Positions 144 through 10,617 of a DNA stretch of 10,909 bases are shown in pieces. The notes under the pieces were generated by a model. The model made no database searches. It worked only from the letters and a program-made list of their open reading frames with translations, and was not told where the DNA came from. This stretch comes from Candidatus Aenigmatarchaeota archaeon (GTDB lineage: Archaea; EX4484-52): assembly GCA_023137195.1 (NCBI GenBank), contig JAGLPV010000030.1:1-10909 (forward strand). Direction: 5' to 3'. How positions within the stretch are numbered: the first letter of the stretch is position 1; every line of letters starts with the position of its first letter. Made by a program: the position numbers and the translations under genes.

Positions 144-341
144 ATGGAAACTGTATGTATACCCAGAGAAAGATACAATTATTTGACAAAATGCGAACAT
201 CTGGTGGATATGGAGTTTGAAGAGAAATTCTCTGATGAGTTTGTAGCCGAAGTTAAAGAAAGCCAGAAAGCATACGAAAGAGGCGAATTTGTAGAAGTGA
301 ATAATGAAGAAGAGAGAAAGAAATTATTTGAATCCTTATAA
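144..341 (+). CDS. Putative type II antitoxin (small acidic protein, partner of a RelE/ParE toxin)
   Basis: 65 aa and very Glu-rich. It has an N-terminal ETVxIPxExY motif and a C-terminal FSDEFVAEVKESQKAYERGEFV segment resembling archaeal RelE-associated antitoxins. GGTGA SD upstream; lies directly upstream of the toxin frame. Confidence 0.75.
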   Translation: METVCIPRERYNYLTKCEHLVDMEFEEKFSDEFVAEVKESQKAYERGEFVEVNNEEERKKLFESL

Positions 342-603: not shown

Positions 604-1458
604 CTAATTCTTTGAATTTGTGTTTTCACAGATGTCTTTTAGGTTTTTGATTCCTGAGAGTACGGAGAATATTGCTAAGGAGATAAGGGCTACAAAATAA
701 GTTAGTTTTTTGAGTTCTTTGTCTTTATATTCTTTTAGGGTATCTATCCTGTCTTTAGTATTGATTTCAAAAGAATCTACCCTAGTTTCATTTTTATCCA
801 AAAAAATTATATCTATTGAAGTGTCTTCTTTTGAAGTAATAGGAATTGCAAACTGGCTTTTATTAAATCGTAAAATTTGGTTATCACCAGATATTCCAGT
901 GCCCATTTTATCAAAATACAAGATATTGATTCGAGTAATTATATTTTCTTTAAACTCTTCAGACATATTTATCTCGCACTTTATTGCTTCTCCTTCTACA
1001 AAACCATTATATTTGGAATTGCAATCTATGGGGAACTTATTCCTATATGTATTATCTGAATAAGGGAGATCTGATGGAAAATAAGCTCGCAAGAGGAATA
1101 TTCCAATCAGAAGAGTTAATGTAATTAGATACATTGCTGTTGATACATAGATATTTCCTTTGAATGAAATTTTATTTAAAATCCATAAAAATAAAAACCA
1201 TCCAATTATACCAATTAATAATAAAATACAAAGTGGAATTAAAATATCTTTAGTTAAAAATATATCCGAATAAAATTTTTCAAATGCGTCTATTATATAA
1301 CCCATAACCAATAAAAGAAGAATTATGCTTATTATTAACTCTATTTGATATTTGAATTCTTGAAAAAACTCTTTTAAACCTCTCTTCATTCTTTCGAATA
1401 AATTACAATATGTTTTTTTACCGACTTTGTTTTTTAGTTTCTTTTCTTTCTTTATCAT
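604..1458 (-). CDS. Hypothetical membrane protein: 3 N-terminal TM helices, a ~125-aa extracytoplasmic beta-rich domain, 1 C-terminal TM helix
   Basis: 284-aa ORF with a basic N-terminus, three hydrophobic stretches (about aa 39-59, 72-94, 103-123) and one at about aa 252-270. The loop has two Cys and sequons NMS, NKS and NET. Starts 10 nt after the NACHT stop. Confidence 0.8.
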   Translation of the reverse strand: MIKKEKKLKNKVGKKTYCNLFERMKRGLKEFFQEFKYQIELIISIILLLLVMGYIIDAFEKFYSDIFLTKDILIPLCILLLIGIIGWFLFLWILNKISFKGNIYVSTAMYLITLTLLIGIFLLRAYFPSDLPYSDNTYRNKFPIDCNSKYNGFVEGEAIKCEINMSEEFKENIITRINILYFDKMGTGISGDNQILRFNKSQFAIPITSKEDTSIDIIFLDKNETRVDSFEINTKDRIDTLKEYKDKELKKLTYFVALISLAIFSVLSGIKNLKDICENTNSKN

Positions 1459-1468
1459 ATCCAGATTA

Positions 1469-3277
1469 TTAAATATTCAAAATTTCTTCAATTGATTTTT
1501 CTGTTTTTTTATGTTCTGCTATTATTTTATCTAAAACATACATGGAACATTTATATTGAAAAGAATGTATGCCATATTTAGCAAATAGTTTGAATACTTT
1601 TTCATTGTCTTCATTTTTACTAAAAACCACATGTATAGGATAATTGTATTGATTTAAAAGTTTTTTTAATTCTTTGGAAAAACAAATTCTATTTCTGTAA
1701 GGAAATAATTCTCCACTACTAAAATGGTTTTTTTGAAATTCATATATATTTACATAATTATAATTAATAAAGGTCATTACCGAAACTCCATTATAGAACC
1801 CAACTGTCCAAGAACTGTCATTAATTAAATAAAAAGTATTTATATAGTTCTTGTAGTAATATACCAGAGATTCATCTTTACTAATACTACCCCATTTTGT
1901 TTCTTTTTTTATTTTCTTTAATTTATCTATCAAGTAATCTTCCTCAAATTTTTCTCTATCTATTTCAAAAACAAGTCTCATAGCGATATCAAAGTTTTTC
2001 TTATTTTCTAATTTTTCCAATAATTTTTTTCTTAATTTAGAATTTACATGCACGATGCATAATGCTGAAAAGTATTCTTGAAATGTTCTGTGTGTGAATG
2101 TGTATTTAATGCCGTCCGGTATAAGTACGCATATTGTTTTTGTTAAATCACAAAAAAAATTATTTTCATCAAAATCTAAATTTGTTATTTTTTTTGAAGA
2201 TTTCAAATATCCTAATGCTTCTTCTTTTGTAAAAGTTATTTTATTTTTCAAATAAGTATATAAACAAAAAAATGACAAAATCTTTTTGAAATCATCTATT
2301 TCTAAATTCGTATAATGTATTCTTTTATAGCCTGTTTTCGTAGCATCATGCTTGATAAAAAGCGTTTCAAATGCCATAGAATAAAAGAGATGTATTTTAT
2401 CAGGAATATCCGCATATTCTCTAAATGTCATTAACATAAGTATTAACAATAACGGATTTGATGCAAATGACTCATGCATGTCGTATAAGTTTACATTCAG
2501 TTCATTATAAAATTCTTTTTTTATTTTTTGATCATAATCAATTTTATCTATTAACTCTAATGATTTTTCTTTTGACAAAGGCAATACTTTCAACTCTACG
2601 AAAGTACTCCATGAAATGTATCTATTCTCTGGTCTTGAAGTGATAATAAAATTATTTTTATAATATTTGTCTTTGAGTTTTAAAAGTTCCCTTTCTATTT
2701 TATCTGTGTTTTTTTCTTCTATTTCATCAAACCCATCAAAAAATAAAATAAACTCACCACTTTCTAACAATTTTTCAAAATATTCTTTTTCTAGATTAAA
2801 ATTTAAATTGGATAGATTTTCATATATAGAATCTATTAATGCTTTTTCTGTATCTATATTTTTTAATTCAATAAATATCGGAATGTGACGTTGTCCTTTT
2901 ATTGTATTGAGAAATAGATGCTTGATTAATGTGGACTTTCCACAACCTGCCGTACCTGTAATCAAAATATTTTTACTTTTTGATGTTAAATTATCAATCT
3001 TGTTTGTATTGATTATCTTTTTTTTATTGTCTTCTAAATCAACATTAACATAAAAATCATATAAATTAACAGGAGTTTCTCTATATAATATTGTTTTCGT
3101 TTGAACATATTTATTTATTGAAGTTTTGTAATACTCTTCAAATGCTTTTTTTGTCTTAATAAGAATTTCATTATGAACATCGTTTCCAAAAGATACTGTT
3201 TTTTTAAATATATTATCAAACTTTTGATTAATAAATTCAACTGCTATTTTAATAAGATAATCTTCATATTCCGCCAT
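1469..3277 (-). CDS. NACHT-family STAND NTPase (NLR-related), putative antiviral defence protein
   Basis: 602 aa. Walker A GTAGCGKST (GTAGCGKS at 2933-2956), PIFIELK strand, Walker B FILFFDGFDEI, sensor IITSRP, NPLLL motif and winged-helix motif FTHRTFQEYFSA. Very AT-rich. Confidence 0.92.
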   Translation of the reverse strand: MAEYEDYLIKIAVEFINQKFDNIFKKTVSFGNDVHNEILIKTKKAFEEYYKTSINKYVQTKTILYRETPVNLYDFYVNVDLEDNKKKIINTNKIDNLTSKSKNILITGTAGCGKSTLIKHLFLNTIKGQRHIPIFIELKNIDTEKALIDSIYENLSNLNFNLEKEYFEKLLESGEFILFFDGFDEIEEKNTDKIERELLKLKDKYYKNNFIITSRPENRYISWSTFVELKVLPLSKEKSLELIDKIDYDQKIKKEFYNELNVNLYDMHESFASNPLLLILMLMTFREYADIPDKIHLFYSMAFETLFIKHDATKTGYKRIHYTNLEIDDFKKILSFFCLYTYLKNKITFTKEEALGYLKSSKKITNLDFDENNFFCDLTKTICVLIPDGIKYTFTHRTFQEYFSALCIVHVNSKLRKKLLEKLENKKNFDIAMRLVFEIDREKFEEDYLIDKLKKIKKETKWGSISKDESLVYYYKNYINTFYLINDSSWTVGFYNGVSVMTFINYNYVNIYEFQKNHFSSGELFPYRNRICFSKELKKLLNQYNYPIHVVFSKNEDNEKVFKLFAKYGIHSFQYKCSMYVLDKIIAEHKKTEKSIEEILNI

Positions 3278-3300
3278 ATTAGGATAAGTAATAATTAATC

Positions 3301-3308
3301 TATATAAA
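3301..3308 (-). promoter_or_regulatory. Putative TATA box (TTTATATA) for the NACHT gene, likely leaderless mRNA
   Basis: TTTATATA on the minus strand ends 24 nt before ATG 3277. No SD motif. Confidence 0.5.
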
Positions 3309-3382
3309 TATTAATCTTTATCAATAAATTCGGGAATTTTCTTCTCATTTACGCCCGTCTTATTTATTTCAACATTCACCAG

Positions 3383-3395
3383 ATACTTTTAAATA
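3383..3395 (+). promoter_or_regulatory. Putative BRE/TATA (ATACTTTTAAATA) for uvrB
   Basis: Ends 23 nt before ATG 3418, which supports a leaderless start there rather than TTG 3409. The same ATACTTTTAAA lies upstream of EF-1beta (7768-7778, minus strand). Confidence 0.5.
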
Positions 3396-3417
3396 TTATT
3401 ATTCTACATTGTATTCT

Positions 3418-5370
3418 ATGAACAAATTCCAATTAACCTCAACTTACACCCCAAAAGGAGACCAACCCCAGGCAATCAAACAACTAACCGACAACCTAAA
3501 ATCAAAAAAATTCCAAACCCTCCTCGGAGTCACCGGCTCCGGTAAAACCTTCACAATGGCAAATGTAATCCAAAACACCCAAAGACCAACCTTAATAATC
3601 TCCCACAACAAAACCTTAGCCGCCCAACTATACAGCGAATTCAAAGAATTTTTCCCAAATAACGCAGTAGAATATTTTGTCTCCTATTACGACTACTACC
3701 AGCCCGAAAGCTACATTGCCTCAACAGACACATACATCGCAAAAGACGCGGCAATAAACGACAAGATAGAATTGATGAGACTCTCGACAATAAAATCAAT
3801 AATCGAGAGAAAAGATGTAATCGTAATTGCATCTGTCTCCTGCATCTACGGCTCGGGACAAAAGCAGGATTACGAAGCAATGATTTTCCCTGTAAATAAA
3901 AACCAGAAGATTTCAAGAAACCAAATAATAAAACAGCTTGTGGATATGCAGTACGAAGCAAACAACATCGCCCCGAAAAAAGGGAATTTCAGGGTTTCAG
4001 GAGATACAATAGATGTATTTTTAAGCTATGAAAAAAGCATTTTGAAGATTGAAACATTCGGCGACGAAATAGAGGATATCTCTCTTCTTGATTCCATGAC
4101 AAATGAAATCATAGACACACCCAAACATTACAATATATTCCCTGCAAAGCATTTTGTGATGCCGGAAGAAAAACAGAACATGGCATTGGACAAAATAGAG
4201 GAAGAATTGCAGGATAGGATTAATTTTTTCATGGACAAAAATATGCTGGTGGAGGCAAAGAGGATTAAGCAGAGGACAGAATATGACCTTGAGATGATAA
4301 GGGAAATCGGGCACTGCAATGGGATTGAAAATTACTCAAGGCATTTTGACAACAGGAAGGAAGGACAGCCGCCTGCCACTTTGATTGATATGTTTGACAA
4401 AGATTACCTCCTGATGATTGACGAGTCTCATGCGACACTTCCTCAACTCCATGCTATGTATCACGGCGACCATGCAAGGAAAATGTCATTGATTGACAAT
4501 GGATTTAGATTAGAAAGTGCATACGACAACAGACCGTTAAAATTTGAGGAATTCTATAAGAAAGTAAACAATGCAGTATTTGTCTCTGCAACACCGTCTG
4601 CTTATGAAGTGGAGCAAAGCGGTAATGTGGTTGTCGAGCAGGTTGTAAGACCCACCGGCTTATTAGACCCAATAATAGAAATCCGACCGTGCAAAACGCA
4701 GGTAAAGGATGTGATTGTCCAGATTAAAAAAGAAATAAAGCACAAGAGGCGTGTGCTTGTGACGACCATTACAAAGAAGCAGGCAGAGGAATTATCGGCT
4801 TACCTTGACGAGCAGAAGATAAAGACAAGATGGCTTCACAGTGAGGTAAAGACTCTTGACAGGGCAAACATCATAAGGGATTTTCGGCTCGGAAAATTTG
4901 ATGTAATCTGCGGGGTGAATCTTTTAAGGGAAGGACTGGATATCCCGGAAGTCTCTCTTGTTGCGATTTTGGATGCAGACAAGGAAGGTTTTTTGAGGAA
5001 TACAACTTCCCTTGTTCAGACTGTGGGAAGAGCGTCGAGAAATATCCATTCAAGGGCAATACTTTATGCAGACAAACAAACCAAATCAGTAAAGGAGACC
5101 TATGACCAGATACAGAGTAGAAGAAAAGTTCAGGAAGCATACAATAAAAAGCACGGCATAACTCCAAAGACAATAGAGAAAAATATTGCAGCGCCAATGA
5201 GTGCTGAAGAAGAAAAAGAAACGATAAGTTTGAAGAAATTCAAGACAATAGAGGAAAAAGAAAAATATATTGTTGACCTTGAATTCAGGATGAAAGAAGC
5301 GGCAGAGAATCTGGACTTTGATATGGCAATAAGGTTAAGGGATGAACTGGAATTGATGAATGCTTCTTAA
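3418..5370 (+). CDS. uvrB: Excinuclease ABC subunit B (UvrB)
   Basis: Motifs PKGDQPQAI, Walker A LLGVTGSGKTFT, HNKTLAAQLY, beta-hairpin YFVSYYDYYQPE, GIENYSRH, IDESH, FVSATP, NLLREGLDIPEVSLVAILDADKEGFLR and GRASRN, plus a C-terminal UVR coiled coil (AAENLDFDMAIRLRDEL). Confidence 0.98.
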   Translation: MNKFQLTSTYTPKGDQPQAIKQLTDNLKSKKFQTLLGVTGSGKTFTMANVIQNTQRPTLIISHNKTLAAQLYSEFKEFFPNNAVEYFVSYYDYYQPESYIASTDTYIAKDAAINDKIELMRLSTIKSIIERKDVIVIASVSCIYGSGQKQDYEAMIFPVNKNQKISRNQIIKQLVDMQYEANNIAPKKGNFRVSGDTIDVFLSYEKSILKIETFGDEIEDISLLDSMTNEIIDTPKHYNIFPAKHFVMPEEKQNMALDKIEEELQDRINFFMDKNMLVEAKRIKQRTEYDLEMIREIGHCNGIENYSRHFDNRKEGQPPATLIDMFDKDYLLMIDESHATLPQLHAMYHGDHARKMSLIDNGFRLESAYDNRPLKFEEFYKKVNNAVFVSATPSAYEVEQSGNVVVEQVVRPTGLLDPIIEIRPCKTQVKDVIVQIKKEIKHKRRVLVTTITKKQAEELSAYLDEQKIKTRWLHSEVKTLDRANIIRDFRLGKFDVICGVNLLREGLDIPEVSLVAILDADKEGFLRNTTSLVQTVGRASRNIHSRAILYADKQTKSVKETYDQIQSRRKVQEAYNKKHGITPKTIEKNIAAPMSAEEEKETISLKKFKTIEEKEKYIVDLEFRMKEAAENLDFDMAIRLRDELELMNAS

Positions 5371-5894
5371 CTTAAAGGTACATTATCTCCTATGTTTGCT
5401 TCTGAAGGACAGTCTTCTTCCCATATCCTCAAACATTTCTGCTTTGCTTCGCACCACGTGTATCCTGCCATCAACATGCATCCATGTTCGTCTGTATCTC
5501 CACCGATGGCTCTTTCATGTTTGCAATAGCAATTGCATTGCCCTTCTTTTTCGCAATGTTTTAAATCCACAGTAGCCTGGCAAACGCCAATCTCTACATC
5601 ATCGTCGCGTATTTCGTCAGACCGCATACAATGCCCTGCATCATATTCCTTTTCGATACACTCTGAATTACATGTCTCTAAATTAAAAGTTTCACATGGC
5701 TCTTCCCATGTCCTCAGGCATTTCTGCTTTGCCTCGCACCATGTATATCCAGCCGTATTTAAACAGCCGTGTTCATCTGTCTCTCCACCAATAGATTCAT
5801 CCATATGTGAATCATCAGTATTGCTAAACAAAATTCCACTAGCGAGTATAACACAAAATGCCACAATTCCATAAACTATTTTTTTGTTTTCCAT
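5367..5894 (-). CDS. Secreted or membrane-anchored Cys-rich protein with two GGxxDEHGC...AGYTWCEAKQKCLRxWEE repeats
   Basis: 175 aa with a signal-like N-terminus (MENKK plus hydrophobic core) and 16 Cys in the mature part. Two 33-aa repeats. AGGT lies directly before the ATG. Stop overlaps the uvrB stop (TTAA 5367-5370). Confidence 0.85.
   Translation of the reverse strand: MENKKIVYGIVAFCVILASGILFSNTDDSHMDESIGGETDEHGCLNTAGYTWCEAKQKCLRTWEEPCETFNLETCNSECIEKEYDAGHCMRSDEIRDDDVEIGVCQATVDLKHCEKEGQCNCYCKHERAIGGDTDEHGCMLMAGYTWCEAKQKCLRIWEEDCPSEANIGDNVPLS
5409..5507 (-). repeat. Intragenic 99-bp repeat copy 2 (IGGDTDEHGCMLMAGYTWCEAKQKCLRIWEEDC)
   Basis: 27/33 aa identical to copy 1 at 5694-5792. Many synonymous differences at the DNA level. 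Confidence 0.93.
5694..5792 (-). repeat. Intragenic 99-bp repeat copy 1 (IGGETDEHGCLNTAGYTWCEAKQKCLRTWEEPC)
   Basis: 27/33 aa identical to copy 2 at 5409-5507. Confidence 0.93.
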
Positions 5895-5941: not shown

Positions 5942-6092
5942 GAACCATTAAAATCCACGGAAGACACAAGAACATAGGAGAAGAAAACAAATCACTTTCC
6001 TGTGGATTAAGTCGGTTCCTGTGGGTTCCGTACGTTATTCAACAAAGTTGAATATGCAGAAAATCTCTGATTTTCTCGCATCCTGTGGATTA
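5942..6092. repeat. Structured intergenic repeat element (REP/MITE-like, or secY 3' UTR/terminator structure)
   Basis: TCCTGTGGATTA exact at 5998-6009 and 6081-6092, with a variant TCCTGTGGGTT at 6017-6027 and an inverted variant AATCCACGGAA at 5952-5962. Perfect 8-bp hairpins TATTCAAC-AAA-GTTGAATA (6036-6054) and AGAAAATC-TCT-GATTTTCT (6058-6076). Confidence 0.7.
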
Positions 6093-7448
6093 CATCTCAA
6101 AATACTTTCTCAGCGTAGGATTCATATCCTTCATGTATTGTGTTGCTATCTGCTCATACAACTGGTATATAATCATGACTACTAATAATATCCCCGTACC
6201 ACTCGCAAGAGAGCCGGTAAAGTCAGCAAACGATGCAAGGAATCCTACAAAGGCTCCACCCATCAAGGCAAGCGGCATGATGTATCTTCCAAGCACTTTT
6301 TCTATGACTCTGGGGTCTCTCCTGAATCCTGGAATCTGCATACCTGTGTTTTGTATCTGCTTCGCAACAGATCCCGCATCCATTCCACTGGTCATCACCC
6401 AGAATATCGCAAATACAGCACTGCCGATAATCATGAACAAAGAATATGTTATGACTCTCAGGACATCTATCCCAAGAATATTAAATTGAAGGACATTCTG
6501 TAAAAAATTAGTTGGCGGACTCAACAATAAAAGGGGTCCTCCAACAATAGCTCCATCGCTATATTCTCCCAGAATATTTATGCCTTTAGAGCTTAACATC
6601 TGTCCGGCAACGCTTATATTAATCAAAAGAACAGCAACCAAAATTACAGGGATAACTGATGCATATATGAATTTTAATGGCCATTTTCTTCCGAATCCCT
6701 TTATTGAACCAAATGCAAGGGGTATTTCTATTTTCAATGTCTGGGCATATATTACGATTAAAAAAACAAGAGCTGTTGTCAAAAGAGGCGTCAGCAAGGG
6801 CATAATCGTCTCGTAAGAGAAAGCTCCGCCAACAACAGTTTCAATCAATGCAGGAATTTTTCCTATCAGGTAACCTGCCTCAGACCTTGCGAAACTGAAC
6901 GCTTCTGTAAAAATCTGCGTACTGACATTTGCCGCGATAAATAATGATATCCCTGAACCAATACCCCATTTAGTAATCACTTCATCAAAAAATACAATGA
7001 TTAGTCCGCCAAGGAATAATTGAAAGCATACAGTTGATGCCATCCCGGCTTTTGGGACAATAGCACCAAAATATGCAAAAGCAAAGGATTCTATTGCACA
7101 GAACCCGAATGCCATTAGTTTTTGTATCTGTCCAAATCTTGCTTTTCCTGCCTGTGTGGACAGGTCAAATTCCACTATCTTTGAACCGACTAATAATTGA
7201 AGTATAATAGAAGATGTAACAATGGGACCAATACCTAGTGTCAAAATAGAACCGAAACTTGCTCCCATCAGCATAGATACTCGTTTTAACAACTCTGCTG
7301 CACTCTCTGATCCATAAAGAGGAACGTTTGACAGAATGTAAAATAGAACTAATATAATTGCTGTCCATTTCAGCCGTGTATTGAAATTTACTTCTTTTTT
7401 CGGGGCTTCCACAGAAGGTAGTTTGTTTAATATTGCATCCCAGTTCAT
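6090..7448 (-). CDS. secY: Preprotein translocase subunit SecY (archaeal Sec61alpha type)
   Basis: 452 aa, polytopic. Motifs LPSVEAP, RLKWT, GSILTLGIGPIVTSSIILQLLVG, DEVITKWGIGSGISLFIAA, PLKFIYASVIPVIL, GMQIPGFRRDPR and GTGILLVV are characteristic of archaeal SecY. Confidence 0.97.
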   Translation of the reverse strand: MNWDAILNKLPSVEAPKKEVNFNTRLKWTAIILVLFYILSNVPLYGSESAAELLKRVSMLMGASFGSILTLGIGPIVTSSIILQLLVGSKIVEFDLSTQAGKARFGQIQKLMAFGFCAIESFAFAYFGAIVPKAGMASTVCFQLFLGGLIIVFFDEVITKWGIGSGISLFIAANVSTQIFTEAFSFARSEAGYLIGKIPALIETVVGGAFSYETIMPLLTPLLTTALVFLIVIYAQTLKIEIPLAFGSIKGFGRKWPLKFIYASVIPVILVAVLLINISVAGQMLSSKGINILGEYSDGAIVGGPLLLLSPPTNFLQNVLQFNILGIDVLRVITYSLFMIIGSAVFAIFWVMTSGMDAGSVAKQIQNTGMQIPGFRRDPRVIEKVLGRYIMPLALMGGAFVGFLASFADFTGSLASGTGILLVVMIIYQLYEQIATQYMKDMNPTLRKYFEM

Positions 7449-7467
7449 ATTATCTAAAATTAATCAT

Positions 7468-7731
7468 CTAAACTAATGTTGCGCTGTCACATTCAACGCT
7501 TTCAATCTGCTCTATTTTTTCAAGTTCTTCCTGCAGTTTGTCTGTAATACCCGCTGTATCTTCTGTAACATACAGTGCTCTTAGCATCTTTATTCCAAAT
7601 GCAACAGATTCTATTTTAAAATTCTCAACTGACCCGGCGTGTTTTTTTTCTATGTCTTTCTTGAGTTTATCAAAATCACATTCTACTGACGTTGGCATTA
7701 TCTTAAAAGAAATTAATACTTTTCTTGACAT
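7468..7731 (-). CDS. ef1b: Archaeal translation elongation factor 1-beta
   Basis: 87 aa with the aEF-1beta pattern: V-x-x-x-x-KIMP-x-S-x-E, E-x-VAFGIK-x-L, TD-x-L-x-E-x-L-x-x-I-x-x-I-E-S-V-E. Confidence 0.9.
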   Translation of the reverse strand: MSRKVLISFKIMPTSVECDFDKLKKDIEKKHAGSVENFKIESVAFGIKMLRALYVTEDTAGITDKLQEELEKIEQIESVECDSATLV

Positions 7732-7766
7732 AATATTTACCTTGTATTTTATATTAAATATAATAT

Positions 7767-7778
7767 CTTTAAAAGTAT
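7767..7778 (-). promoter_or_regulatory. Putative BRE/TATA (ATACTTTTAAAG) for the ef1b-secY transcript
   Basis: Shares an 11-mer with the uvrB upstream element. An SD-like AAGGT lies a few nt before ATG 7731. Confidence 0.45.
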
Positions 7779-8464
7779 TATGACGATTTTGCCTTGGTTT
7801 TATCTATCAAACTGCATGCAAGATAAATAAACGGCGTATCGATAACTGCGATAATCATTTTTACTACCCATTGCCCGAAAATCAACGGAGCAATTGGCAT
7901 TACTCCCCAGAAAGCAATAGTGACGAATATTGCCGAATCAATGAACTGTGATACAACAGTTGATGCATTGTTCCTTAGCCATAGATATTTTCCTCCTGTT
8001 TGTTTTTTCCAGAATTCAAATGCTATGACATCGTGGTGTTGTGATATTAGGTAAGCAATCATCGAGGCAAAAACAATCCTTGGCGCAGAAGAAAATATCA
8101 TATTAAATGCAGATAAAAATTCTTCGCTCATAAAGATAGCAGGTGTCCACAGGACGGATATCTTAATGATGATTACCATTGCAACGCTTGCAAGAAATCC
8201 ACACCATACTGCTTTTTTGGCGTATTTTTTACCCCATTTTTCAGACAGGATATCTGTCAGCAAAAAGGTTGCAGAATAGGCAATAATTGCTGCAGGAACA
8301 ACGAAATTTCCAAATGTTACTACTTTTGATGCAACCATATTTGCTACCAATACAAGACCTGCAAATACTGCAATTATGTATTCAACGCCGTGTCTTTTAC
8401 CTATGACAGCAACGAGGGTTGCAAATGATAGGACAATCAGGATATATAGGATTTCTGTTAACAT
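7778..8464 (-). CDS. yhhQ: Queuosine/archaeosine precursor (preQ0/preQ1) transporter, YhhQ/DUF165 (VUT) family
   Basis: 228 aa, polytopic. Motifs ANMVASK, FLLTDILSEKWGKKYAKKAVWCGF, PRIVFASMIAYLISQHHDV, LWLRNNASTVVSQFIDS and K-x-x-IAVIDTPFIY. Confidence 0.93.
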   Translation of the reverse strand: MLTEILYILIVLSFATLVAVIGKRHGVEYIIAVFAGLVLVANMVASKVVTFGNFVVPAAIIAYSATFLLTDILSEKWGKKYAKKAVWCGFLASVAMVIIIKISVLWTPAIFMSEEFLSAFNMIFSSAPRIVFASMIAYLISQHHDVIAFEFWKKQTGGKYLWLRNNASTVVSQFIDSAIFVTIAFWGVMPIAPLIFGQWVVKMIIAVIDTPFIYLACSLIDKTKAKSS

Positions 8465-9634: not shown

Positions 9635-10171
9635 ATGGAAAAAATAATATTAATTACGCTGGTCATTTTAGTTCTTTTATCCGGCAGCGGATGTCTTGAT
9701 TATATTTCTGAAGTAGAGGGAGATTCCAACGAAAATAACAGCCTCGCACCGGGTTGTGAAGAACCAAAAGGGATTTTTCCACAGACAACAGGCTGCCTGG
9801 GAAAATCAGGCATAAAAGATATTTCAGTTGAGCCAACAATAGAGTGTCTGGAATTGCGTGCTAATAATTGTAATGGAGGTGTGTTGGGAATTTCCAATAA
9901 TTGTAATTTTGATTTGCAAATTGACGATGTGATTATTTCTCCCGACACATATAAGAATATAGAGTTGACAAGAAACAAGGACGGCAAAGTTGTTGTTGTT
10001 GAACCTAAAGGAAATTTTGATTCCTATAATCCACAAAATGAAGATTTATTAGAGGCATCAGCAACTCTTGGAGACCAAATCATTACTATTTCCTATCTAA
10101 AGAAAAATGTCTGTGGAAGAGAGAAAACTCCAAATATTCCAATGAATGAAGATGAAGACATATGGCAATAA
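9635..10171 (+). CDS. Hypothetical lipoprotein, Cys-rich
   Basis: 178 aa. MEK plus hydrophobic core plus lipobox-like SGSGC; six further Cys. Starts 6 nt after the ROK stop. Confidence 0.8.
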   Translation: MEKIILITLVILVLLSGSGCLDYISEVEGDSNENNSLAPGCEEPKGIFPQTTGCLGKSGIKDISVEPTIECLELRANNCNGGVLGISNNCNFDLQIDDVIISPDTYKNIELTRNKDGKVVVVEPKGNFDSYNPQNEDLLEASATLGDQIITISYLKKNVCGREKTPNIPMNEDEDIWQ

Positions 10172-10173
10172 AT

Positions 10174-10617
10174 ATGAAAAAATACATATCAATCATGGCG
10201 ATAGTTGCTATGCTAATTGTCGTTTCGGCATGTATTGGACCGGACAACCAGGGAGAAGACGACTTAAATCGGTTTAAAGGGATATCCACTGCGGAGATTG
10301 ATTCAAATTGCGTTGAATATAGAGATGATGTTTGCGCTTTATTTGAGTGTATGGTTGAGAGATGCTGGTGTGATGATTCCAGCCCGGAATTGCCAATCTT
10401 ATATGAAAAAGAAGGAATTTCTATTGCTGATGAAGAAGAGGCAATTGCCATAGTAGGAGAATATATCCAAGACAGTGAATATAAGGATTATGATGTCATA
10501 AGGGTTATTAAGCTCAACAATGTCTTTTTTAATGTGTTTGCCCAAAATGCAGATGATGAAATAGTTTTTACCATTGCCGCGGATGGGACTATAATAAAAA
10601 CAATTTGTGGTGTTTGA
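10174..10617 (+). CDS. Hypothetical lipoprotein with a Cys cluster and a C-terminal PepSY-like domain
   Basis: ATG 10174 (MKKYISIMAIVAMLIVVSAC) gives a canonical lipoprotein signal 2 nt after the previous stop; alternative ATG at 10162. Contains C-x7-C-x4-C-x4-C-x-C, then EEEAIAIV...FNV...VFTIAADGTII resembling PepSY. Confidence 0.8.
   Translation: MKKYISIMAIVAMLIVVSACIGPDNQGEDDLNRFKGISTAEIDSNCVEYRDDVCALFECMVERCWCDDSSPELPILYEKEGISIADEEEAIAIVGEYIQDSEYKDYDVIRVIKLNNVFFNVFAQNADDEIVFTIAADGTIIKTICGV

Follow-up and report, generated by a model that had tools for sequence, protein, structure and literature searches.

Antiphage proteins built around a NACHT nucleoside triphosphatase (NTPase) domain are an already known single-gene defence family. 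In one report, WP_015632533.1 of Klebsiella pneumoniae is named bNACHT01, its gene is described as lying outside any operon and as protective in Escherichia coli alone, and the SNaCT domain is defined by its rapid diversification (10.1101/2022.07.19.500537). For bNACHT11, which is grouped with bNACHT01 in 'clade 14' (bNACHT01/02/11/12/23), a second report describes assembly as a heptamer, a SNaCT domain that binds several phage proteins, and an effector consisting of an N-terminal extension of about 45 amino acids (aa) with an MDPIT motif, which leads to a plasmolysis-like death (10.1101/2024.12.17.629029). Here we analyse a gene for a NACHT protein, and the gene for a transmembrane (TM) protein that follows it, on contig JAGLPV010000030.1 of a Candidatus Aenigmatarchaeota archaeon; the window is this whole 10,909-bp contig (C24) of genome G000, an assembly of 1.42 Mb in 57 contigs that is 84.8% complete. 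We regard it as probable that the window encodes a bNACHT01-like single-protein immune sensor which was acquired horizontally, and that the TM gene belongs to a separate accessory family and is not a required partner. This reading rests on the domain identities, the homology to bNACHT01, the hypervariability of the C-terminal tail, the absence of a pairing of the two genes elsewhere and the foreign composition of the locus. Since the family itself has been described, the new part is its archaeal, horizontally acquired member.

Kinship of the NACHT protein with bNACHT01

Judged by its sequence, the NACHT protein is homologous to bNACHT01, with which it shares a short N-terminal extension, the NACHT domain and a short variable tail. 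BLASTP aligned it with WP_015632533.1 at 29% identity over 392 aa (E 8e-34), collinearly (residues 44-418 with 44-422) and with the homology beginning at residue 44 in both proteins, which are also alike in length (602 and 609 aa, respectively). The 420 homologues found are about 600 aa long, and the closest of them (P0003-P0005) share 46-47% identity with the window protein over the full length including the tail. Its homologues, like those of 'clade 14', occur in defence islands, plasmids and prophages: tblastn found them on 209 plasmid records, 101 of which are from Klebsiella, WP_015632533.1 adjoins CBASS genes on a Klebsiella plasmid (L094, NZ_CP009116.1), another homologue lies between McrBC-type and type I restriction-modification genes on a Bacillus cereus plasmid (L095, NZ_CP085502.1), and the prophage protein family phrog_18297 matches the window protein over its full length (E 1.5e-103). 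By homology and architecture, the protein would be of the 'clade 14' type.

The domain analysis agrees with the preliminary description of this DNA, which had reported a 602-aa NACHT protein with about 100 aa ahead of the Walker A motif and a repeat-free tail of about 190 aa. Pfam placed the NACHT domain at residues 104-243 (43.9 bits against a cut-off of 26.7). The Walker A motif GTAGCGKST (residues 108-116, nucleotides 2930-2956) is preceded by about 107 aa and is intact, as is DGFDE at residues 181-185, a FTHRTFQEYF motif lies near residues 393-403, and all invariant columns of the family are kept (G111, G113, K114, D184, E185, H396, F399, Q400 and E401). When the whole AlphaFold2 model (predicted local distance difference test score, pLDDT, 83.1) was compared with the PDB by Foldseek, the best matches were NLRC4, NOD2 and NLRP3, with E values down to 3.4e-11; likewise, the profile of the NACHT family retrieved NLRC4 and NLRP3 from the PDB sequences, including the FxHxxFQEY winged-helix motif. 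A NACHT module with an NLRC4-like fold is a further likeness to 'clade 14'. These animal NOD-like receptors (NLRs) are the best structural matches and yet share only 14-16% identity with the window protein, which, unlike them, has no leucine-rich repeat (LRR) sensor, CARD or PYD.

No TIR, SIR2, nuclease or protease family was among the matches listed (the best 25 of 32 Pfam families), as the preliminary description had stated, and the lack of a recognisable enzymatic effector domain is again shared with 'clade 14'. The Pfam scans showed no repeat families in the protein, and its first 100 aa, scanned alone, matched a single family, SF0329, at E 0.14. The term 'effector-less', which had been applied to the protein, is however not supported: for the homologous bNACHT proteins the reports describe a clade that acts as a single gene and has its effector in the short N-terminal extension, so that the term implies no missing partner. 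By analogy with bNACHT11, residues 1-43 of the window protein are a putative output or effector segment.

Variability along the protein was measured on a 32-sequence family alignment (31 homologues and the window protein). The tail proved to be the most variable part: its entropy reached 2.70 bits, against 1.62 bits for the NACHT module, and the median identity to the window protein was 19% against 49%. The N-terminal extension was variable too (2.49 bits, 22%). Several homologues carry Pfam SNaCT6, SNaCT7, SNaCT12 or SNaCT13 at residues 444-607, where the window protein has its tail; a C-terminal region that is short, free of repeats and hypervariable thus stands at the SNaCT position both in it and in 'clade 14'. 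The window protein differs from this clade in its archaeal host, in having no MDPIT-like motif, in a tail that falls outside the Pfam SNaCT models and in the presence of a TM-protein gene 10 nucleotides (nt) downstream.

The antiviral STAND NTPases (Avs1-24) follow the same logic, in that a single polypeptide unites sensor and effector with a STAND NTPase and is activated by viral proteins, according to the report on them (10.64898/2026.01.04.697583). They differ in being mostly larger and in having sensors of the tetratricopeptide (TPR) or another type and effectors that are enzymes; PADLOC returned no Avs model for the window NACHT protein, only weak P-loop matches to mad8 and SspF.

Relation of the membrane protein to the NACHT gene

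The preliminary description had proposed that the NACHT protein is coupled to the TM protein, whose ATG follows the NACHT stop codon on the same strand after a gap of 10 nt (1459-1468). Our analysis does not bear this out, and the TM gene is most likely an unrelated neighbour, neither a conserved nor a required partner. When 1.84 billion representatives were searched exhaustively with HMMER, 21 relatives of the TM protein (190-466 aa) were found, and two word-index searches gave 2 matches each. The profile of this family found no member at any of 80 bacterial loci (flanks up to 5 kb) or 60 IMG/VR viral-contig loci (4-kb flanks) around NACHT homologues, and four genomes with near homologues of the NACHT protein, searched in full, gave none at E<=0.001 either. 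Within the phylum the profile found members in 3 of 42 genomes (G000, G010 and G025), and there was no NACHT gene near the TM-family genes of G010 and G025, the two loci of two that were readable. A NACHT-TM fusion is absent from the 21 family members, since the longest has 466 aa. Hence two of the three observations which the preliminary description had named as speaking against its proposal were made, namely TM homologues without NACHT neighbours and NACHT homologues without a neighbour of the TM family.

In CBASS or Thoeris-type defence, separate TM effectors are encoded and a gene for an NTPase or sensor is followed by a multi-TM gene. The TM protein of the window differs from such effectors in that it is dominated by an extracytoplasmic immunoglobulin (Ig)-like domain, that no cytoplasmic domain for binding a signal is detectable in it and that its presence beside the NACHT gene is not conserved. 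Multi-TM open reading frames (ORFs) do lie directly 3' of the NACHT homologue at 3 of the 80 bacterial loci (L007, L024 and L076) and at 1 of 52 assessable viral loci (L111); as analogues of the TM gene they were rejected, none of them matching the TM family. By eye, we take the three bacterial ones for a histidine kinase, a frame of CobS-like type and a 5-TM protein that is unrelated.

The structure that had been described for the TM protein was recovered in full. Hydropathy placed TM segments at residues 41-59, 72-90, 105-123 and 249-267 in a 3+1 layout, and the AlphaFold2 model (pLDDT 82.7) consists of three helices, a beta-sandwich (133-233) and a C-terminal helix (241-283), so that in both the chain begins with a basic cytoplasmic stretch, crosses the membrane in three helices, forms the ectodomain and ends in a conserved C-terminal TM anchor. 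In the family alignment (20 of the 21 members) C146 and C161, which lie within the ectodomain, are invariant, a FPSxLP motif follows the preceding TM helix, and the C-terminal anchor is conserved as FSVxSxxxNLKxI. N-x-S/T sequons, found at N164, N199 and N223 of the window protein, are concentrated in the ectodomains of the family (about 55, versus about 10 elsewhere). This supports the extracytoplasmic, probably glycosylated domain of the preliminary description; the ectodomain is probably disulfide-bonded as well. As modelled, its beta-sandwich is generically Ig-like and resembles MG, RhoGDI and FN3 domains: Foldseek matched Ig-like, macroglobulin MG and RhoGDI domains of the PDB at E values of about 6e-4, none of them specific, a BFVD search gave weak matches to Ig-like membrane glycoproteins, and a VIA wide search gave helical hairpins (Z<=10.2) and beta-sandwiches (Z about 7-8) within the stated background. 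The ESM Atlas offered no usable feature match for the protein, only beta-sandwich look-alikes of low TM-score, and no family in Pfam, NCBIfam, PADLOC or PHROGs was matched.

The TM family is patchy in its distribution. Its member in G010 has 219 aa (L088 3978-4637, G010:C48) and that in G025 has 326 aa and lies directly downstream of uvrA (L090 7001-7966, G025:C102), and a second, truncated copy stands at a contig end in G000 (L089 7749-8039, G000:C17). The G010 gene is flanked by what we take, naming them by eye, to be cyclophilin-like and PQQ-repeat-like genes. The guanine-plus-cytosine (GC) contents of TM-family genes were 0.286, 0.291 and 0.241, versus 0.43-0.46, 0.50 and 0.378 in their respective flanks, and every family gene whose flanks could be read stands singly, low in GC, amid higher-GC housekeeping genes, which suggests a mobile or fast-evolving accessory gene. 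Since all such genes are low in GC, the AT-richness of the window TM gene is a trait of the family and no sign of a joint arrival with the NACHT gene. As a separate observation, both the G025 gene (after uvrA, L090 3915-7966) and the window gene (1.9 kb from uvrB, 604-5370) lie near uvr genes, which may be coincidence.

These features would also suit two independent cargo genes in one variable islet, where the TM protein is a stand-alone surface module, for instance in virus-entry exclusion, receptor masking or cell-cell recognition, and its mobile single gene is parked behind the NACHT gene. We hold this to be unlikely as an explanation of its own, and it overlaps the favoured reading rather than excluding it. 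The rarity of the family (3 of 42 genomes in the phylum, 21 representatives world-wide), its low-GC single-gene islets and its Ig-like ectodomain with an invariant Cys pair and enriched sequons are consistent with such a role; against it, the clues are limited to fold and topology, the protein is unmatched in the four family collections named above, and two pattern sets found no family member in viral contigs. Metagenome scans for relatives of the TM family (with alignment patterns and with P0002) found nothing.

Several observations weigh against a self-contained sensor with an unrelated neighbour. The closest relatives of both proteins (P0003-P0005 for the NACHT protein; P0002, P0123 and P0124 for the TM protein) come from environmental contigs, whereas the loci examined are those of other homologues; for the TM family these are distant members (62 and 40 bits). 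The 10-nt gap, the lack of a consensus TATA box ahead of the TM gene in a motif scan of the window and the extreme AT-richness shared by the two genes fit one transcription unit and possibly a joint acquisition, and co-transcription is plausible from this arrangement. Moreover, the window NACHT protein starts with MAEYEDY and has no MDPIT- or MEPIS-like motif of the kind needed in bNACHT11, as described in 10.1101/2024.12.17.629029, its extension being of matching length despite the missing motif; starts of this kind occurred in only 2 of 120 listed homologues, P0056 (MPDPIPG) and P0057 (MEPDF). The last 172 aa, for which a match to SNaCT had been considered in the preliminary description, matched no Pfam family at E<=10 and no SNaCT model; bNACHT01 itself had no match to the SNaCT models at E<=0.001. 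Finally, the bNACHT11 structure (9ORF) was not among the PDB matches of either Foldseek or the family profile.

On these grounds one could propose a lineage-specific two-gene system, in which a bNACHT-type sensor signals via the co-transcribed TM protein as an in-trans effector or adaptor. Its adjacent genes, both of them compositional outliers and the second without a consensus TATA box of its own, and its NACHT N-terminus without an MDPIT-like effector motif would be accounted for, the loci examined are those of homologues other than the closest, and the junction of the two genes is intact in a contig from a second sample (record 11), which comes from the same study and is not independent support. 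This arrangement nevertheless seems unlikely to us, given a TM-family gene at 0 of 140 NACHT homologue loci, the lack of a NACHT gene near the TM-family genes of G010 and G025, and no fused form among the 21 family members. In addition, the TM protein as modelled is mostly an extracytoplasmic Ig-like domain and would offer only short cytoplasmic segments to a cytoplasmic NTPase, and bNACHT01 works alone as described (10.1101/2022.07.19.500537). In a more specific form, which we consider quite unlikely, the transferred sensor would have lost its MDPIT-type motif and would now signal through the co-transcribed membrane protein with its glycosylated Ig-like ectodomain; if true, small-genome archaea would have an NLR system of their own that is split into two components and possibly links cell-surface events to a cytoplasmic NTPase.

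Origin and surroundings of the islet

The NACHT gene lies in a compositionally foreign islet beside a toxin-antitoxin (TA) pair. Its GC content of 0.234 is within the lowest 0.6% of the 847 ORFs of at least 200 aa in a genome with a GC content of 0.353, and that of the TM gene (0.265) is within the lowest 2.1%; over positions 1000-3400 the values are 0.21-0.25, versus 0.37-0.44 for uvrB and secY, in accordance with the greater AT-richness that had been noted for both genes. The contig itself carries archaeal host markers, aEF-1beta (TIGR00489, 63.1 bits against a cut-off of 61.2) and a SecY matching PRK08568. In a search of the phylum, 1 of 42 genomes, G000, was found to encode the NACHT protein. 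Another genome of the genus, whose uvrB is 92% identical, has other genes 5' of uvrB, among them one that is glucan-phosphorylase-like, a name given by eye. The homologue loci from species-representative genomes were bacterial in 80 of 80 cases. In a FastTree phylogeny of 86 rows, confined to close homologues, the window protein fell in a supported ten-row clade, whose rows are unnamed or labelled 'uncultured bacterium', and this clade neighbours rows that include Bacillota. Since the protein was not found in the other 41 genomes of the phylum, horizontal acquisition is the simplest reading and probably the correct one. This case fits the picture drawn in a recent survey, in which archaeal defence genes have a patchy distribution with a bias of transfer from bacteria to archaea, and compact single-gene systems are enriched in DPANN archaea (PMC12988326).

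The same uniqueness and extremely foreign composition would be expected if the NACHT gene were a recent passenger, non-functional or non-immune, such as a signalling NTPase or decaying foreign DNA. This is very unlikely in our view, as the frame of 602 codons is intact, all family-invariant columns including those of Walker A and B are kept, and the listed contigs from further samples of the same study contain the NACHT sequence with zero differing letters. The stretch including the NACHT/TM junction was found in contigs from 4 DNA runs of this one cold-seep study.

Upstream of the NACHT gene, which diverges from uvrB (start at 3409), the TATA box of the preliminary description was found at the position given, with the sequence TTTATATA (Table 1). 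The box is a possible archaeal promoter candidate for a leaderless or short-leader transcript, while the number of TATA-like motifs in the window is not above chance (7, compared with a shuffle mean of 5.07, with 50 of 200 shuffles reaching 7).

Table 1. Features of the window, with positions, strand and the basis of each assignment
Feature	Position	Strand	Basis or remark
NACHT gene, 602 aa	1469..3277	-	ORF call, Pfam NACHT, AlphaFold2 model, BLASTP to bNACHT01
N-terminal extension, residues 1-43	3149..3277	-	Helices 2-27 and 34-42 in AlphaFold2 model; variable
NACHT module, residues 101-415	2033..2977	-	Nucleotide-binding domain, helical and winged-helix parts; Pfam, Foldseek, invariant columns
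C-terminal tail, residues 416-602 (187 aa)	1472..2032	-	Repeat-free, hypervariable; at SNaCT position of homologues
TM-protein gene, 284 aa, family without a name	604..1458	-	ORF call, hydropathy, AlphaFold2 model, family alignment
Ectodomain, residues 127-240	739..1080	-	Ig-like beta-sandwich, invariant Cys146/Cys161, three N-x-S/T sequons
TATA-like box TTTATATA	3301-3308	-	24-31 nt 5' of NACHT ATG; putative role, by position only
DUF2683 protein, 65 aa, likely antitoxin	144..341	+	Pfam 27.6 bits, cut-off 27; context only
RelE/ParE/YafQ-like toxin, 73 aa	377..598	+	ParE_toxin 32.3 bits, cut-off 23; context only

The adjoining TA pair of the preliminary description was likewise recovered, both DUF2683 and ParE_toxin scoring above their cut-offs; a small ParE/RelE-fold toxin is preceded by a small antitoxin gene, as in type II TA modules. 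The toxin also matches the RelE-like phrog_1213 and reaches 37.9 bits with the YafQ model, below its cut-off of 87, and its gene runs towards the TM gene, with 5 nt between the stop codons of the two. The toxin ORF (377-598) starts with TTG and the profiles match only from position 9-13 onward; its start may be non-canonical or the protein N-terminally short.

Further along the contig, a protein of 175 aa (5367-5894, minus strand), for which no Pfam or NCBIfam family was found, begins with what resembles a signal anchor and contains two Cys-rich segments that are nearly identical (GGxTDEHGC...AGYTWCEAKQKCLRxWEE). Between this ORF and the 3' end of secY (5950-6095) lies an interspersed repeat of about 60-120 bp with CCTGTGGATTA-like words, copies of which occur on some 20 further contigs of G000 and also in G003, a genome of the same genus, and which looks like a miniature inverted-repeat transposable element (MITE)-like or intergenic repeat family. 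Two adjacent small proteins (9635-10171 and 10162-10617, plus strand) have N-terminal hydrophobic segments, several cysteines and no NCBIfam match. Elsewhere in the genome, contig G000:C45 contains a borderline second NACHT/STAND-like ORF (26.4 bits, e.g. 2686-3000) together with several long ORFs that rank among the lowest in GC in this genome (near 7293-8271, 19226-19913 and 26089-29686), and may be another accessory or defence island.

Proposed mode of action and significance

Taken as a self-contained sensor, the NACHT protein suggests the following sequence of events. A bNACHT01-like gene would have passed horizontally into a small-genome archaeon of a cold-seep community, where it would have landed in a low-GC accessory islet beside the RelE/ParE-type TA pair. 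We infer an antiviral function in this host, with the protein acting as a single-protein abortive-infection sensor; with regard to its activation, its variable tail would recognise a viral protein, or several, by binding, as is reported for the SNaCT domain of bNACHT11. The 284-aa TM protein belongs to a rare accessory family, and its gene is probably co-transcribed with the NACHT gene at this locus. The antiviral role that had been proposed for the two genes is thus retained for the NACHT protein, an NLR-related NTPase of the published antiphage kind in a foreign islet, and is not extended to a coupling with the TM protein.

For the membrane protein, our analysis defines a small family with an Ig-like ectodomain, whose genes form low-GC single-gene islets in archaeal genomes. 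The NACHT gene, in turn, raises the question of how an output that was reported to cause plasmolysis in E. coli would operate on an archaeal envelope, and from a protein without the known N-terminal motif. In summary, the locus places an NLR-related sensor of the bNACHT01 type in a small-genome archaeon, which apparently received it from bacteria, and provides a concrete case for the compact single-gene defence of DPANN archaea and for the bacteria-to-archaea transfer described in the survey cited above (PMC12988326).

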